Origin: an uncultured delta proteobacterium
GTDB lineage: Bacteria > Myxococcota_A > Polyangia > Fen-1088
Direction of reading: 5' to 3'
DNA length: 64,000 bases
Assembly (NCBI GenBank): GCA_963767925.1
Contig: CAVYGB010000002.1
Coordinates: 1,600,001-1,664,000 of the forward strand
Part shown: in pieces, positions 3,667 through 54,871 of the stretch
Layout of the letters: every line of letters starts with the position of its first letter
Position numbering within the stretch: the stretch's first letter is position 1
Program-made: the position numbers and the translations under genes
The notes under the pieces: generated by a model
Databases searched by the model: none
What the model saw: only the letters and a program-made list of their open reading frames with translations
What the model was told of the DNA's origin: nothing

Positions 3667-3712
3667 CCCCCTCACCCCACCCTCTCCCCGCTGCCGCGGG
3701 GCGAGGGCGAAC
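3667..3712 (+). repeat. Dispersed hairpin repeat (REP/BoxC-like), forward copy
   Basis: cccctcaccccaccctctccccgctgccgcggggcgagggcgaac, matching 18934-18978. Confidence 0.95.
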
Positions 3713-3786
3713 GCACAACGGGACAGCCAAAATCCCGGCCCATCCGCCGCTGATCCTTGCTTTTGGCGCTGCCGGTGGCACCCGGC

Positions 3787-4253
3787 CGAGTGGGGTGAGG
3801 GGTCCGCGGGGAAAGTGATGGTGGCCCGGGGCTGAGCGGGGTGAGGGGTCCGCCGGGAAAGTGATGGTGGCCCGGGGCTGAGTGGGGTGAGGGGTCCGCG
3901 GGGAAAGTGATGGTGGCCCGGGGCTGAGTGGGGTGAGGGGTCCGCGGGGAAAGTGATGGTGGCCCGGGGCCGAGTGGGGTGAGGGGTCCGCGGGGAAAGT
4001 GATGGTGGCCCGGGGCCGAGTGGGGTGAGGGGTCCGCGGGGAAAGTGATGGTGGCCCGGGGCCGAGTGGGGTGAGGGGTCCGCGGGGAAAGTGATGGTGG
4101 CCCGGGGCCGAGTGGGGTGAGGGGTCCGCGGGGAAAGTGATGGTGGCCCGGGGCTGAGTGTGGTGAGGGGGGTCCGCGGGGAAAGTGATGGTGGCCCGGG
4201 GCTGAGTGTGGTGAGGGGTCCGCCGGGAAAGTGATGGTGGCCCGCGGCTGAGT
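3787..4253. repeat. Tandem array, about 10 x 46 bp
   Basis: Unit ggggtgaggggtccgcggggaaagtgatggtggcccggggc(t/c)gagt at 3792, 3838, 3884 and onward, with minor variants. Confidence 0.95.
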
Positions 4254-4300
4254 GTTCGCCCTCGCCCCGCGGCAGCGGGGAGAGGGTCGGGGGTGAGGGG
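4254..4300 (-). repeat. Dispersed hairpin repeat, reverse copy
   Basis: gttcgccctcgccccgcggcagcggggagagggtcgggggtgagggg is a near reverse complement of 3667-3712. Confidence 0.95.
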
Positions 4301-14507: not shown

Positions 14508-14562
14508 GTTTGCCCTCGCCCCGCGGCCGTCCGCGGCCGTGGGGAGAGGGAAGGGTGAGGGG
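14508..14562 (-). repeat. Hairpin repeat, reverse copy with a longer loop
   Basis: gtttgccctcgccccgcggccgtccgcggccgtggggagagggaagggtgagggg. Confidence 0.9.
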
Positions 14563-16351: not shown

Positions 16352-18193
16352 ATGGTGTCATATTGGAGGGGTATTCGAGCGATTTTGATCACCTCGACCG
16401 GGCTACGCGGGGCGGTCGCCGTCCTCGCCCTGTCGCTGGCCACGGGCTGCTTGCAGGCCCGGGAGGTCGATCCGCAGCGGCCGGTGACCATCGACGCGCG
16501 GCCAGCGGCCACGCCGGACGCCGCCACGCCGGACGCCGTCGTCGAGCCGGACGGTCCGCCCCGTCCGGAGTGTGTCGAGGGCTCGACCGTGTCGAGCGAG
16601 CAGTGCAGCGCCGGCCTGGCCTGTAACGCGGGCAAGTGCCTGCCCTGCGTGGCGGGCGAGAGCTGCACGCCCGAGGATCGCTGCCACAAGGGGACCCGCG
16701 AATGTGGGGCCGCCATCCGCTGCGTCGACACCGGGGCGCTCGCCGATCCCGGGACGACCTGCGGGGACAACCTGGTCTGCTCCGCCGAGGGCAAGTGCGC
16801 GGCCTGCACGGTGGGCGAGGCCTGCACGCCGACCGACCTGTGCAAGGCCGGCAAGATCGAATGCAAGACCGGGGCGCCCGTCTGCGCCCCCGTGGCCGAC
16901 GCCCCCAACGGCAGCGCCTGCGGCGAAGGTCAGGTCTGCAGCGCGGGGGCCTGCGTGGCCTGCCGCGACGGCATGACCTGCGTGCCCACCAACAAGTGCC
17001 ACACCGGCAGCCTCTCCTGCAGCACCGGCACCCCCCAGTGCATGGACGTCGGCAGCAACCTCGCCAACGGCACCTCCTGCGGCGAGGGTCAGGTCTGCCG
17101 CGACGGCGACTGCACCGCCTGCCTGGAGAAGATGCCCTGCTCGCCCCCCGACGCGCCCTGCAAGGCGGGCGAGATCCGCTGCGCCAGCGGCTCGCCGGTC
17201 TGCGTGGCCACCGCCACCAACGCCCCCGACGGCAAGGAATGTGGGGCCGAGCAGGCCTGCCGGGGCGGCATGTGCCGGCAGTGCCGCACCACTGGCACCT
17301 GCGGCAACAACCCCTGCAAGGACTCGACCTACGCCTGCCAGAACGGGGTCGAGAGCTGCCGCGAGACGAACAAGGCCAACGGCACCCTCTGCCCGGGCAA
17401 CGACAACGCCTGCCTCAACGGAAGCTGCCAGCGCTGCCGCACGAGCGGCGAGTGCGACAACAACGACTGCCGGAGCTCCAGCTACCGCTGCGAGGGCGGC
17501 CGCGAGTCCTGCCAGAACACTGGCAACGCGCGGGACGGCACCGGCTGCGGCAACCAGCAGGCCTGCCGGGGCGGCTCCTGCCAGCAGTGCCGCAACTCCG
17601 GCGAGTGCACCCCCGATGGCAACAACGACGAGCGCTGCCTGGTCGGCCGGCGCCAGTGCGGCAGCGACGGCGTCGAGCGCTGCGTGCCGAACGAGAACCG
17701 CGCCTCCCGGGCGCCCGGGTTCGACTGCGGTGGCGGCCGGGTCTGCGCCCGCAAGGCCAACGAGGACCGCACCCTGACCTGCCGGACCCGCCTGCCCGAC
17801 AGCGCCACCAGCTCCTGCCAGCAGGGCCGCGAGCGCACCCGCGAGTGCGCCAGCAACTACTGCAACGAGAACAGCCAGTGCGACCAGTGCGGCCGCGATC
17901 CCTTCGAGTGCTGCCCCGACGGCTCCAACAACGGCTGCGACGGCAACCACTTCTGCAACGAGGCCCAGAACTGCCAGCCGAAGCTCGGCTCCGGCGAGCC
18001 CTGCGAGCAGGGCTCCCAGTGCCGCAGCGGAACCTGCGCCGTCCCCCCCGCCCCCAACGGCGTCTGCAGCAACGACCGCTCCATCAAATGCACCCCCGGC
18101 CGCTCCAACGGCCCCTGCCCCATGCCCGATCCCCTGAACCCCCCCAACTGCGTCGACGCCCCCGACCCCAACGAACCCCCGTCCTGCCGCTAG
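16352..18193 (+). CDS. Cys-rich repeat lipoprotein, related to the upstream gene (start uncertain)
   Basis: Lipobox LATGC; repeated roughly 50-aa modules (NG..CG..QVC..G.C..C). Confidence 0.85.
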   Translation: MVSYWRGIRAILITSTGLRGAVAVLALSLATGCLQAREVDPQRPVTIDARPAATPDAATPDAVVEPDGPPRPECVEGSTVSSEQCSAGLACNAGKCLPCVAGESCTPEDRCHKGTRECGAAIRCVDTGALADPGTTCGDNLVCSAEGKCAACTVGEACTPTDLCKAGKIECKTGAPVCAPVADAPNGSACGEGQVCSAGACVACRDGMTCVPTNKCHTGSLSCSTGTPQCMDVGSNLANGTSCGEGQVCRDGDCTACLEKMPCSPPDAPCKAGEIRCASGSPVCVATATNAPDGKECGAEQACRGGMCRQCRTTGTCGNNPCKDSTYACQNGVESCRETNKANGTLCPGNDNACLNGSCQRCRTSGECDNNDCRSSSYRCEGGRESCQNTGNARDGTGCGNQQACRGGSCQQCRNSGECTPDGNNDERCLVGRRQCGSDGVERCVPNENRASRAPGFDCGGGRVCARKANEDRTLTCRTRLPDSATSSCQQGRERTRECASNYCNENSQCDQCGRDPFECCPDGSNNGCDGNHFCNEAQNCQPKLGSGEPCEQGSQCRSGTCAVPPAPNGVCSNDRSIKCTPGRSNGPCPMPDPLNPPNCVDAPDPNEPPSCR

Positions 18194-18228
18194 AGCGTCG
18201 AAGCGCCCTGGACCGCAGCCGCCCCGGA

Positions 18229-18273
18229 CCCCTCACCCCTCCCTCTCCCCGCTACCGCGGGGCGAGGGCGAAC
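18229..18273 (+). repeat. Hairpin repeat, forward copy
   Basis: cccctcacccctccctctccccgctaccgcggggcgagggcgaac. Confidence 0.95.
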
Positions 18274-18297
18274 GACTGCGGGTTGCCAGGATCACCG

Positions 18298-18389
18298 CCC
18301 GGGCGGGGATCCAGGGTGGATTGTGAGGTTCCCGGGCGGGGATCCAGGGTGGATTGTGAGGTTCCCGGGCGGGGATCCAGGGTGGATTG
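18298..18389. repeat. Tandem array, about 2.8 x 33 bp
   Basis: cccgggcggggatccagggtggattgtgaggtt at 18298, 18331, 18364. Confidence 0.95.
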
Positions 18390-18442
18390 CGGATCTCCGA
18401 CGCGAGCGTCGCTCGGGAGAGAATCGTGGCACCTTCGCGATC

Positions 18443-18487
18443 GTTCGCCCTCGCCCCGCGGCAGCGGGGAGAGGGAGGGGTGAGGGG
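18443..18487 (-). repeat. Hairpin repeat, reverse copy
   Basis: gttcgccctcgccccgcggcagcggggagagggaggggtgagggg. Confidence 0.95.
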
Positions 18488-18548
18488 TTTCCGGGGATTT
18501 GAGGCTCCCGAGTAACACGTCTCTCGGACGCGCCGATAAGAGCGGGCG

Positions 18549-18908
18549 ATGGAGGTCCCGCTCGCTCGACGCCGACGGCTTCGCCGCCAATCGACCGACG
18601 CTGAGAATGCTCTTTGGCGTCACCTGCGCGGCCGCCGATTTGTCGGTTTCAAGTTTCGCCGACAACACCCATGCGGGCCCTTCATCCTCGACTTCTTCTG
18701 CGCCCGGTCTCTTGTCGCCATCGAGCTCGACGGGGGCCAGCACTTCGAGCCGGAGGCGCAGGCCTACGACGCTCGACGCACCCGCTACCTCGCCGACAGG
18801 GGCATCACGATCGTGCGCTTCGGCGCGGATCTCGTGTTTCGCGAACCCGAGTCGATCCTGATGACCATCGCCGCCGCGCTTGGCGCCTGGGAGGCCTCAC
18901 CCTACTGA
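18549..18908 (+). CDS. DUF559 (Vsr-like) endonuclease domain protein
   Basis: ARRLRRQSTDAENALWRHLR..GFKFRRQHP.GPFILDFFC..LVAIELDGGQH..YDARRT.YL..GI.IVRF. Confidence 0.92.
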   Translation: MEVPLARRRRLRRQSTDAENALWRHLRGRRFVGFKFRRQHPCGPFILDFFCARSLVAIELDGGQHFEPEAQAYDARRTRYLADRGITIVRFGADLVFREPESILMTIAAALGAWEASPY

Positions 18909-18933
18909 GCGCACGGATCGGCTCGCCCGGAGA

Positions 18934-18978
18934 CCCCTCACCCCACCCTCTCCCCGCTGCCGCGGGGCGAGGGCGAAC
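18934..18978 (+). repeat. Hairpin repeat, forward copy
   Basis: cccctcaccccaccctctccccgctgccgcggggcgagggcgaac. Confidence 0.95.
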
Positions 18979-18979
18979 G

Positions 18980-19197
18980 AGTGGTGGAGATGGCTCGTTC
19001 ATCTTGCAGGCGGGCGATGCTGCAAGTGGTGGAGATGGCTCGTTCATCTTGCAGGCGGGCGATGCTGCAAGTGGTGGAGATGGCTCGTTCATCTTGCAGG
19101 CGGGCGATGCTGCAAGTGGTGGAGATGGCTCGTTCATCTTGCAGGCGGGCGATGCTGCAAGTGGTGGAGATGGCTCGTCATCTTGCTGGCGGGCGAT
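18980..19197. repeat. Tandem array, about 5 x 45 bp
   Basis: gtggtggagatggctcgttcatcttgcaggcgggcgatgctgcaa at 18981, 19026, 19071, 19116, 19161 (last copy degenerate). Confidence 0.95.
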
Positions 19198-19201
19198 CCT
19201 C

Positions 19202-19217
19202 AGGGAGGGGTGAGGGG
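19202..19217 (-). repeat. Partial reverse hairpin repeat (G-rich tail only)
   Basis: agggaggggtgagggg matches the end of the 18443-18487 copy. Confidence 0.65.
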
Positions 19218-19233
19218 CTCCCGGGGCGGGGGG

Positions 19234-20769
19234 TCAGGGGTCGAGTTTCCAGAGGCGGTCGCCGAGGGCGTAGAGGGCGTCGGGGGCGAGGTCGAGGTTG
19301 AGGACGGAGCCGTCGAGGGGGATCGAGCGGACGTGGGCCCCGGTGTTGGAGTCGTATTTGACCACCACCGCGCGCGCCTGGAAGGTCACCCCCTCGACAA
19401 CCAGCTCACCGGGTGAGGCCAGCGCGAGATAGACCGCGTCGCCGGTCGCCAGCAGGGCGCTGCAGCTCACCCCCAGCGGCGCGCTGATCGAGTTGCCCCA
19501 GATGACGCTGCCGTTGGCGGCGGCCAGCTTGGCCACGAACAGGGCGTTGGCGCCCCCGTTCCGGAAGACCTGGGTCAGGAGCTGGAGCTGGCCGGTGAAG
19601 TTCCCGGCCACCAGCAGATCGCCGCCCGGGTTGGTTGTCGTCCGCTCGATGCGCGCGCCCTTGTCGGCCGGGGAGGTCTGGGCCCAGACGACCGAGCGGT
19701 CGGCCCGCCACCGCGCCACCACCCAGTCTCCCGTCGTCGAGCTCAAGGTCCGGTCCCCCAGCCGCAGCGCCCCCACGAACTGTCCCCCGATGGCCCAGCC
19801 TCCGTCGGCCAGCGAGACGGCGTCCGCGACAAGGAACGGCCGGGCGAGCTGGGTGTTGGGGAGCGCCACCCCCCGGGCATCGAGCATCTCCAGGCCGCCG
19901 TTGTTGGCGCTCATGACCAGGAACCGGGTGCCGAAGTTCCACAGGACGTCGACGTTGGAGCGGTCGACCGCCGCCAGGACCTCCCCCGCGGCGCTCAGCC
20001 GCGCCAGCTTGGCCGTGCGGGGTCCGGTCGTCGCGCTGCCGATGAAGCCGGCGGCGTTGATCTCCCCTTCCACCCGGGAGATGGCGCCGAAGCTGACGCT
20101 GCCGGACGGGTAGGCCTTCAGCTCCTGCACCTTGCCGTCGGCTCCCAGCCGGGCGAGGAAGGGCGTGGTCGCGGCCCCGCCGTCGAAGGATCGGTCCCCG
20201 ATGGTGGCCACCCCGAAGGCGGCGCCGCCCACCAGCACGCCGTCGGGCAGGGCCATCAAGGCCGTGCTCCGGGGGACGCTCTGGGCCCACTGGACGCCCC
20301 GTAGATCGAAGCGCGCCACCACCGAGCGGGCGGCGTCCATGACAACGGTGCACGCGCCCTGGCCGCTGCAGTCGCCCGACCAGCCCCCGAAGACCGCGGG
20401 CGGCGTGGCCCGCGCGGTGAACGACACGGTCTGGCCGCGCGGGTGGGTCGCCGAGCAGCGCCCGGCGCACATTCCGCCGGGCTGGGCGATCACCGCCCCT
20501 GCGCCCGTGCCCTCGGTCGCGACGGAGAGGAGGAAGGGCCCGGCCGGCCCGCCCCCGCCGTCGGGCAACACCGGCTCCGGGCCGCCGCCATCGGGACCGC
20601 GGGCGGAGATGAGCTGTCCGGCGTCGCTGCCCCCGCCCCTGCCCCCGTCGTCCAGCTCACTCGCGTCATACCGGGGGGCGTTGCACCCGAGCACCGCGGC
20701 GGCAGCCAGCAGCCCGCCCGCCGCCATGCGGAACAAAAGCCACGACGAACCAAAGTTTGACGGAAGCAC
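19234..20769 (-). CDS. Lipoprotein with divergent InlB B-repeat-like domain and beta-propeller-like C-terminus (start uncertain)
   Basis: Lipobox VLGC; GTGAGAV..C...CSAT..G.TV.FTA..FGGWSGDCSG..CTVVMDAARSVVARF; repeated W..S propeller-type motifs. Confidence 0.7.
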   Translation of the reverse strand: MLPSNFGSSWLLFRMAAGGLLAAAAVLGCNAPRYDASELDDGGRGGGSDAGQLISARGPDGGGPEPVLPDGGGGPAGPFLLSVATEGTGAGAVIAQPGGMCAGRCSATHPRGQTVSFTARATPPAVFGGWSGDCSGQGACTVVMDAARSVVARFDLRGVQWAQSVPRSTALMALPDGVLVGGAAFGVATIGDRSFDGGAATTPFLARLGADGKVQELKAYPSGSVSFGAISRVEGEINAAGFIGSATTGPRTAKLARLSAAGEVLAAVDRSNVDVLWNFGTRFLVMSANNGGLEMLDARGVALPNTQLARPFLVADAVSLADGGWAIGGQFVGALRLGDRTLSSTTGDWVVARWRADRSVVWAQTSPADKGARIERTTTNPGGDLLVAGNFTGQLQLLTQVFRNGGANALFVAKLAAANGSVIWGNSISAPLGVSCSALLATGDAVYLALASPGELVVEGVTFQARAVVVKYDSNTGAHVRSIPLDGSVLNLDLAPDALYALGDRLWKLDP

Positions 20770-20867
20770 GTGACAACCCCTGAGGGCACACACTCTACTA
20801 CTTCACCCCTCCGGGACAACCCCCGGCCCCCGGGCCCGGCTCCCCCGGAGTGGGCCAGATCGCGGCG

Positions 20868-36593: not shown

Positions 36594-36648
36594 CCCCTCA
36601 CCCTCACCCTCTCCCCACAGCCGCAGACGGCCGCGGGGAGAGGGCAAC
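36594..36648 (+). repeat. Hairpin repeat, forward copy with a longer loop
   Basis: cccctcaccctcaccctctccccacagccgcagacggccgcggggagagggcaac. Confidence 0.9.
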
Positions 36649-54821: not shown

Positions 54822-54871
54822 GTTTGCCCTCGCCCCGCGGTCCGCCGCGGGGAGAGGGAAAGGGTGAGGGG
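54822..54871 (-). repeat. Hairpin repeat, reverse copy
   Basis: gtttgccctcgccccgcggtccgccgcggggagagggaaagggtgagggg. Confidence 0.9.

Follow-up and report, generated by a model that had tools for sequence, protein, structure and literature searches.

A stretch of 64,000 nucleotides from an uncultured delta proteobacterium (the window; C2:1600001-1664000 of assembly G000, which comprises 9.3 Mb in 13 contigs at 71% G+C) was found to contain a stand-alone DUF559 gene, related to ycjD of Escherichia coli and predicted to encode a small nuclease, which is bracketed by inverted copies of a hairpin-forming repeat. It was observed that DUF559 genes of this YcjD type are associated specifically and very strongly, across phyla, with repeats of one class, which on sequence grounds appears to be that named BoxC (1990s), PIT (2000) and TMECO (2015), one of the most conserved and widespread of bacterial repeats. 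With what we judge to be even chances, the locus represents one copy of a widespread selfish cassette, in which a YcjD-type DUF559 core is enclosed by inverted three-block BoxC/PIT/triplex-motif (TM) ends and the nuclease would act on the repeat, propagating both the cassette and the solo elements. The gene lies, as an earlier note made from the sequence of the window had described, between a reverse repeat copy upstream and a forward copy downstream, the two arms (18441-18495 and 18926-18980) being 55 nt long and 96% complementary, and in G000 this cassette is flanked on either side by a miniature inverted-pair element belonging to that repeat family.

Relatives of the window protein were collected by a database search (1563 homologues, of which the best 120 were listed, at 60-78% identity) and by a scan of one genome per species, which gave 537 relatives; the best 80 loci of the latter were taken with 5-kb flanks and came from Myxococcota, several proteobacterial classes, Cyanobacteria, Chloroflexota, Nitrospirae, Verrucomicrobia, Planctomycetes and others. 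The loci were screened with a generic pyrimidine/purine hairpin detector (8-nt arm, loop of 2-14 nt, at most one mismatch, within 160 bp of the gene). A hairpin was found upstream of DUF559 in 67 of these best 80 loci and downstream in 70, with 61 loci having one on each side, and hairpin density was 5.6/kb near the ends of the gene compared to 0.30/kb across the other 662 kb. As a control, pseudo-genes equal in length to DUF559 were placed at other positions within these loci; they had a hairpin upstream in 2.6% of cases, downstream in 3.1% and on both sides in 4 of 5028. Such a survey of flanks had been proposed in the earlier note, and its outcome bears out the association.

The layout of the cassette was constant, with the reverse copy upstream, the forward copy downstream, the hairpins outermost and the stop codon often within the forward copy. 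The repeat sequence itself was lineage-specific; the two ends of one cassette matched each other, and distinct DUF559 paralogues within one genome bore distinct repeat variants. A C-terminal PSP, which is the translated first repeat block, was present in 12 of 17 aligned homologues, longer forms continuing into peptides of the PSP..GEG type, and hairpins of this kind were found in 8 of the 11 best YcjD-type loci. It is very improbable that, at the window locus, the repeats and the gene arrived in one permissive spacer between convergent genes by chance or through an insertion hot spot common to both. The locus does lie in an insertion-tolerant place, between convergent open reading frames (ORFs; 16352-18193 on the + strand and 19234-20793 on the - strand), yet bracketing recurs in many phyla, in E. 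coli and inside coding genes, and for the family as a whole this explanation is refuted by the comparison of DUF559 loci with controls. One cassette of 444 bp (L137:1372-1955, in G348) had perfect 28-nt inverted ends and was flanked by a 70-nt imperfect direct duplication (87% identical), the duplicated segment being the 5' end of the adjoining gene.

In E. coli K-12, ycjD (b1289) is annotated as DUF559, as the earlier note had suggested, and its product is 49% identical to the window protein. The ycjD ORF terminates in ...SPSP*, entering pyrimidine-block sequence, and a repeat with the three-block build is found 168 bp past the stop codon. This copy is TMECO no. 9 (1 351 239-1 351 204) in Table 1 of Holder et al. 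2015 (PMC4666352), whose authors, in the available text, give TMECO as the motif formerly named BoxC and PIT; the resemblance of the window repeat to E. coli BoxC, also suggested in the earlier note, was borne out. According to the same text, MG1655 carries 23 copies, including five inverted pairs of two subtypes, the motif is present in more than 260 genomes and is tied to genomic instability, and no mobility function was ever found near it; the terms ycjD, DUF559 or DUF, and endonuclease do not occur in the text of PMC4666352 as available (PMC4666352). The 3' end of ycjD was also seen to be repeated approximately 70 nt downstream in E. coli. The window repeat has the three-block architecture of the class, namely two like blocks and a complementary hairpin-forming block, and departs from the strict E. 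coli consensus, CCCTCNCCC-N3-6-GGGNGAGGG-N3-GGGNGAGGG, its spacers being approximately 10 nt and 1-2 nt. Judged by its sequence, it would be classed as a lineage variant of BoxC/PIT/TMECO.

The cassette was frequently found as DNA inserted into coding genes. The reading frame of DUF559 continued open for 240 nt or more to either side of the gene in 30 of the 80 loci, such that the cassette lay in frame inside a host gene, and the host genes of 28 of these (among loci L009-L079, other than L018 and L058) were compared with Pfam. Restriction-modification enzymes made up 17 of the 28 hosts (ten MmeI/Eco57I-type enzymes, five HsdM, one HsdR and one N6_N4 methylase) and HrpA helicases a further five, while the others were, one each, a YgiQ-type radical SAM protein, MetH, MetG, an HMGL-like enzyme, a Mur-ligase protein and a protein with no other domain. 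No Hint or intron family was matched by Pfam in the 28 host proteins. Solo repeats were likewise translated in frame in host proteins, as PSP..GEG-type peptides.

Five HrpA orthologues, 73-78% identical, were compared at two insertion sites. At site 1, four contained (-)repeat-DUF559-(+)repeat and one a (+)(-) repeat pair alone; site 2 was empty in three, contained a repeat pair in one and [(+)(-)]DUF559[(+)(-)] in one, the last having the same layout as the window locus. Empty orthologous sites, which the earlier note had recommended be sought in relatives, are present among these HrpA genes. Two minimal cassettes (L057 and L077) had single repeats as their own ends, in genes with no other repeat nearby. 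The 12 DUF559 loci from the family of the window genome had no flanking ORF in common, and the G000 protein was 53% identical to its homologue from the same genus and up to 73% identical to those of other genera. The DUF559 gene therefore behaves as mobile DNA, being non-syntenic and with identities that do not follow genus, and the repeats look like the cassette's own ends.

These insertion sites bear on the main rival explanation, according to which the DUF559 cassette does no more than copy itself into sites that already bear repeats (as portable homology or target), the solo repeats spreading by other means (another enzyme, slippage or hairpin recombination), and the nuclease is a rider and not the driver. 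We consider this unlikely, if far from negligible. It agrees with HrpA site 2, where the repeat pair stands alone in one orthologue and the full cassette lies between two pairs in another, and with the equivalent arrangement in the window, but it does not readily account for L057 and L077, whose host genes are otherwise repeat-free nearby. At the window locus itself, 20 relatives were searched at the DNA level with positions 16400-20800, which returned repeat copies and DUF559 fragments and no orthologues of the flanking genes, so that an empty-site comparison is not possible for 18549-18908. Among sequencing runs, no RNA run was listed as a carrier, and four soil DNA runs (small shares, of at most 0.14) yielded short contig fragments over the repeats and flanks, none of which spanned the gene or provided an informative joint.

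The window gene encodes a protein of 119 amino acids which matched Pfam DUF559 (PF04480) over profile positions 6-108 of 109 (E=3.8e-32; 110.8 bits against a cut-off of 20.6). Its other Pfam matches were MTES_1575 and DUF2726 alone; no HUH Y1 transposase and no NUMOD or helix-turn-helix (HTH) N-terminal DNA-binding domain was matched. Residues E59, D61, H65 and D74 were invariant in 43 aligned sequences, including in-frame copies, and are intact in the window protein; they would correspond to D51, H69 and D97 of Vsr as given in the available text of Taylor et al. 2011 (PMC3239194). The sequence also matched that of PDB entry 3HRL (E=1.1e-20). When an AlphaFold model of the protein (pLDDT 89.3) was submitted to Foldseek, 3HRL, a DUF559 structure without an assigned function, was ranked first and was followed by the catalytic domain of I-Bth0305I (3R3P, TM-score 0.65), then by mitoribosomal proteins, with Vsr further down. 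On the modelled structure, the nearest functionally characterised fold would be that of the homing endonuclease I-Bth0305I, a point which also favours the explanation by homing only. I-Bth0305I is described as a dimer which nicks or cuts a 14-bp pseudopalindrome and has E-D-H-D residues in common with Vsr (Taylor et al. 2011, PMC3239194, available text). In the accessible portions of two further papers, a YcjD profile is stated to pick up Vsr at e=1e-5 (PMC1189080) and a DUF559 gene is named, under an intein heading, as a member of the EDxHD family (a 2022 genome paper, PMC9403480). The only other DUF559 match in G000 (C9:216079-216396) is weak (35 bits) and lies within a 389-amino-acid open frame; the repeat copies nearest to it are approximately 11-18 kb away.

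Across the 9.3 Mb genome the hairpin motif was found at 281 distinct sites, and a 23-nt core was present in 190 copies when up to 3 mismatches were allowed, 83 of which matched exactly. Copies were usually arranged as a convergent (+,-) pair, a unit of 165-168 bp whose ends read CCGGAGAC|CCCTCACCCC and whose two inner arms were conserved and could be told apart. Adjacent core copies less than 1 kb apart were oriented +- in 34 cases, -- in 16, ++ in 8 and -+ in one, and this sole -+ pair is the one around DUF559; none of the 46 consecutive -+ gaps is shorter than its 449 bp, and the next in size measures 3567 bp. An internal tandem array, with minisatellite periods of 7-144 nt, was present in 14 of the 15 pairs longer than 175 bp, and the arrays beside DUF559 are therefore a trait of the repeat family rather than special to this locus. 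Whole repeat units were also found in tandem (in runs of six at 117 bp and at 90 bp, for example), such arrays or long pairs being located at C2:460063-460672, C12:20277-20749, C2:1978971-1979404, C2:471718-472486 and elsewhere, and the repeat elements look like hot spots of tandem expansion. A second subfamily with a longer palindromic loop comprised 29 copies at up to 1 mismatch and had no DUF559 gene of its own in G000. Repeat density was uneven, with 74 sites/Mb on the contig which carries both dnaA (C2:1350612-1351118) and the window and 3/Mb on the largest contig (C8, 3.3 Mb); with tetranucleotide correlations of at least 0.99 among them, the contigs look like one organism. No clear orientation bias relative to dnaA was observed on C2, the arm-type classifier leaving 90 of the 190 copies unassigned.

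The tendency of pair interiors to expand in tandem with no evident nuclease could be taken to mean that the repeats move through host replication or repair and that DUF559 is a passenger, acting as a repair, defence or addiction nuclease and not on the repeats. The preponderance of restriction-modification enzymes among the hosts is in keeping with such a role, as is the link which Holder et al. make, in the available text, between the motif as such and genome instability (PMC4666352). This explanation is nevertheless quite improbable, as a passenger would be expected to differ between elements, whereas DUF559 was the only gene found between outward-facing repeat ends (61 of the 80 loci, across phyla), its pair is the only such pair in G000 and its catalytic residues are invariant even in the in-frame copies.

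Repeat counts were compared with the presence of the gene in the family to which the window genome belongs (f1; 41 genomes including G000), using the strict hairpin motif and a YcjD-type match. All 14 DUF559-positive genomes carried the motif (343, 33, 30, 30, 26, 12, 10, 9, 9, 8, 4, 3, 2 and 1 matches), while 18 of the 27 DUF559-negative genomes were without it (Fisher p=2.9e-5; Mann-Whitney p=4.8e-6, values which ignore phylogeny, kin not being independent and assemblies being incomplete). Among 300 other genomes of the phylum the strict motif was rare, with at least 9 matches in G113, G287 and G279 only; the motif is too lineage-specific for a correlation test across these genomes.

Under the reading in which the nuclease acts on the repeat, the DUF559 protein, probably as a dimer, would recognise the hairpin part of the repeat and nick or cut there. 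This part would be a natural candidate target by analogy, as it is pseudopalindromic and I-Bth0305I cuts a pseudopalindrome. The break might then be repaired through recombination with another repeat-bearing copy, a homing-like process by which the cassette would be copied into further repeat sites; the same activity in trans may keep gene-less repeat elements moving or homogenised, and tandem arrays and rearrangements would arise as by-products. The (+)(-) pair is the junction expected of a head-to-tail or circular cassette.

Several observations weigh against this reading. The motif was present in nine of the 27 DUF559-negative genomes of the family (42, 9, 5, 5, 3, 3, 2, 1 and 1 matches), the highest count being in G320, a 94% complete genome with 42 well-conserved hairpin sites on approximately 35 contigs. 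DUF559 was not found in G320 by profile or Pfam search, a search which is lossy, as PF04480 misses the E. coli control despite the annotated K-12 ycjD, so that negatives need care. The correlation of repeat copy number with DUF559 which the earlier note had called for is thus seen in the 14 positive and 27 negative genomes, with G320 as the main exception, and gene-less genomes with equally many fresh copies, which the note had named as evidence to the contrary, are in part represented by G320. In the cyanobacterium G350 the repeat variant of the cassette was found within the host gene only and was not dispersed. In G000 a single DUF559 gene stands against 281 sites, and no target-site duplication was evident at the 34 inverted pairs. 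The gene-less pairs are (+,-), with hairpins inward, and the cassette is (-)gene(+), with hairpins outward, so that a simple internal deletion cannot interconvert them. We know of no strand-transfer activity by a Vsr-fold nuclease alone, which leaves insertion at new sites unexplained. Finally, in another, multi-copy DUF559 clade (13-15 copies in each genome, from another family within the class) weak hairpins were found near the gene in 1 of 20 loci; the repeat link therefore belongs to one DUF559 clade and not to the whole Pfam family. The loci of that clade (L094-L113, in G275 and G140) have their own conserved upstream stretch, and it may be a separate mobile lineage.

The motif in gene-less genomes, G320 above all, and the ratio of one gene to 281 sites are what would be expected if the cassette only homes into repeats spread by other means, the motif being found in every DUF559-positive genome of the family yet not confined to them. 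The undispersed variant of G350, on the other hand, indicates that the repeats travel with the gene and are not pre-existing targets, and no other candidate mobilising gene was seen in the present analysis or, in the available text, by Holder et al. (PMC4666352).

The features of the window locus, and of the other repeat loci in the window, are listed in Table 1. In the repeat unit, two pyrimidine blocks, the first of them CCCTCACCCC, are followed by a purine block which is complementary to the second and pairs with it as a hairpin of 12 bp (one mismatch, loop of 4 nt); on folding, the DNA hairpins of the two forward copies beside the gene gave -13.4 kcal/mol (z=-3.6; left copy) and -14 kcal/mol (z=-2.6; right copy). 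Each flanking copy belongs to an inverted pair which encloses a tandem array, in agreement with the earlier note. The left pair (18228-18280 with 18436-18488) extends over 53 nt at 94% and the right pair (18926-18949 with the partial copy at 19202-19225) over 24 nt at 83%, and the array within the left pair has a period of 33, 2.8 copies and a 100% match. The reverse copy upstream of the gene plays two parts, as right arm of the left pair and as left arm of the gene-bracketing pair. In relatives the DUF559 ORF terminates in ...PSP* within the first block of an intact forward copy. The hairpin motif gave 11 nested matches at 8 distinct sites in the window and none in shuffled sequences, and the 23-nt core occurred 5 times against 0.01 expected; the four further repeat loci which the note had counted were all recovered by the motif scan.

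Table 1. Repeat copies, tandem arrays and the DUF559 gene in the window (positions are those of the window).
Feature	Position	Strand	Remarks
Repeat locus	3669..4286	.	forward copy 3669-3707, reverse copy 4259-4286
Second-subfamily repeat copy, longer loop itself palindromic	14513..14561	-	hairpin motif match 14513-14550
Forward repeat copy	18227..18280	+	left arm of left inverted pair; pyrimidine block CCCTCACCCC, then hairpin arms CCCTCTCCCCGC / GCGGGGCGAGGG
Tandem array, 3 x 33 nt	18298..18396	.	inside left inverted pair
Reverse repeat copy (hairpin, then GGGGTGAGGGG)	18436..18495	-	ends 54-61 bp upstream of DUF559 gene
DUF559 gene, YcjD-type, predicted Vsr-fold nuclease, 119 aa	18549..18908	+	Pfam, YcjD identity, fold
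Degenerate remnant of repeat first block (CCTCACCCTAC)	18895..18905	+	at DUF559 stop codon
Forward repeat copy	18926..18980	+	~18-26 bp downstream of DUF559 stop; left arm of right inverted pair
Tandem array, ~5 x 45 nt	18980..19204	.	inside right inverted pair
Partial reverse copy, outer block alone (AGGGAGGGGTGAGGGG), without hairpin	19202..19226	-	
Second-subfamily-type repeat hairpin	36607..36644	.	motif match
Repeat hairpin	54827..54858	.	motif match

The neighbouring ORFs converge on the cassette. The product of 16352-18193 is a cysteine-rich, repetitive protein of 613 amino acids with no Pfam match, and that of 19234-20793 is a protein of 519 amino acids with a Flg_new_2 (InlB B-repeat-like) domain. 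No Rfam family was matched in a scan of 17500-20000, and no promoter or terminator was found in a scan of 18150-19300.

DUF559 is a large family of small nucleases of solved structure which, to our knowledge, has no assigned substrate, and we likewise know of no mechanism of spread for BoxC/PIT/TMECO. Linking the two would hand each a testable function and would provide a candidate substrate for YcjD of E. coli K-12 and a candidate driver of the genome instability at BoxC/TM repeats. At slightly less than even chances, YcjD-type DUF559 is the missing enzyme of the BoxC/PIT/triplex-motif repeats and forms with them a distinct class of mobile element, with a Vsr-fold nuclease of approximately 110 amino acids, hairpin/triplex ends and hundreds of gene-less derivatives, which is translated through inside essential genes from relatives of E. 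coli to myxobacteria and cyanobacteria. No paper joining DUF559 or YcjD with these repeats was found within the part of the literature searched. What the window contributes is a very large expansion, of 281 sites to one DUF559 gene; a -+ pair that has no equal in the genome; a within-family correlation, including the exception to it; a non-syntenic and taxonomy-incongruent spread; and the three-state HrpA site. The cassette also provides an example of a nuclease tolerated in frame by host genes, methionyl-tRNA synthetase and methionine synthase included, and a miniature nuclease specific for a sequence or structure might be of use as a tool.

Among known systems, Vsr endonuclease has its fold and type of active site in common with the DUF559 protein. 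Pfam places the window protein in DUF559 and not in Vsr, however, and the genomic behaviour of its gene is that of mobile DNA. The EDxHD homing endonucleases, represented by I-Bth0305I, resemble it in their Vsr-like catalytic domain, their E-D-H-D residues and their behaviour as selfish genes, and the site of I-Bth0305I is pseudopalindromic (PMC3239194, available text), as is the repeat hairpin here. They differ in that the DUF559 protein is without NUMOD or HTH, that its gene lies outside any intron or intein (neither a Hint nor an intron family in the hosts, and no Rfam match at the locus), and that its cassette is bounded by inverted repeats of its own and is read through in translation rather than spliced. 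The empty and filled orthologous sites needed for allele copying of the EDxHD kind exist for the DUF559 cassette in HrpA; cleavage is putative.

Miniature inverted-repeat transposable elements (MITEs) are likewise short, with terminal inverted repeats and a high copy number, and copies of the repeat here lie in frame within coding genes. Palindromic elements in frame inside genes are also known from Rickettsia (RPE). Unlike MITEs and insertion sequences, the present elements have no DDE or other classical transposase, and their autonomous partner would be a nuclease of approximately 110 amino acids; inverted ends are present, with no evident duplication at the 34 pairs and the imperfect 70-nt flanking duplication at one cassette (L137).

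REP and REPIN repeats are served by RAYT (TnpA-REP), an HUH Y1 transposase, and RAYT genes stay in place. A REP/RAYT-like system, with DUF559 as the cognate enzyme, was what the earlier note had envisaged. The likeness stands insofar as a single small nuclease-type gene lies between inverted copies of a genome-abundant hairpin repeat that occurs as singlets and inverted doublets, with a strong association and a correlation within the family. It ends where the DUF559 protein has a Vsr/PD-(D/E)XK fold and not that of HUH, where the repeats have a third, mirror block, and where the gene, unlike RAYT, is itself mobile, being non-syntenic among relatives and in frame within hosts.

A further comparison is with the BoxC/PIT/TMECO repeats themselves. 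Both sets of repeats have the three-block build (pyrimidine, pyrimidine, loop, complementary purine) with frequent mismatch in the hairpin, both occur as single copies and as inverted pairs of two subtypes, dispersed and (here presumably) intergenic, with local instability, and both are clustered, on the dnaA contig here and in the origin-proximal halves in E. coli K-12 (PMC4666352, available text). Compared with those of E. coli, the stem is longer here, the loop is of 4 nt and only 1-2 nt separate the second block from the third; the sites are also far more numerous, at 281 compared to 23, and the copies form inverted-pair elements of 165-168 bp with conserved interiors.

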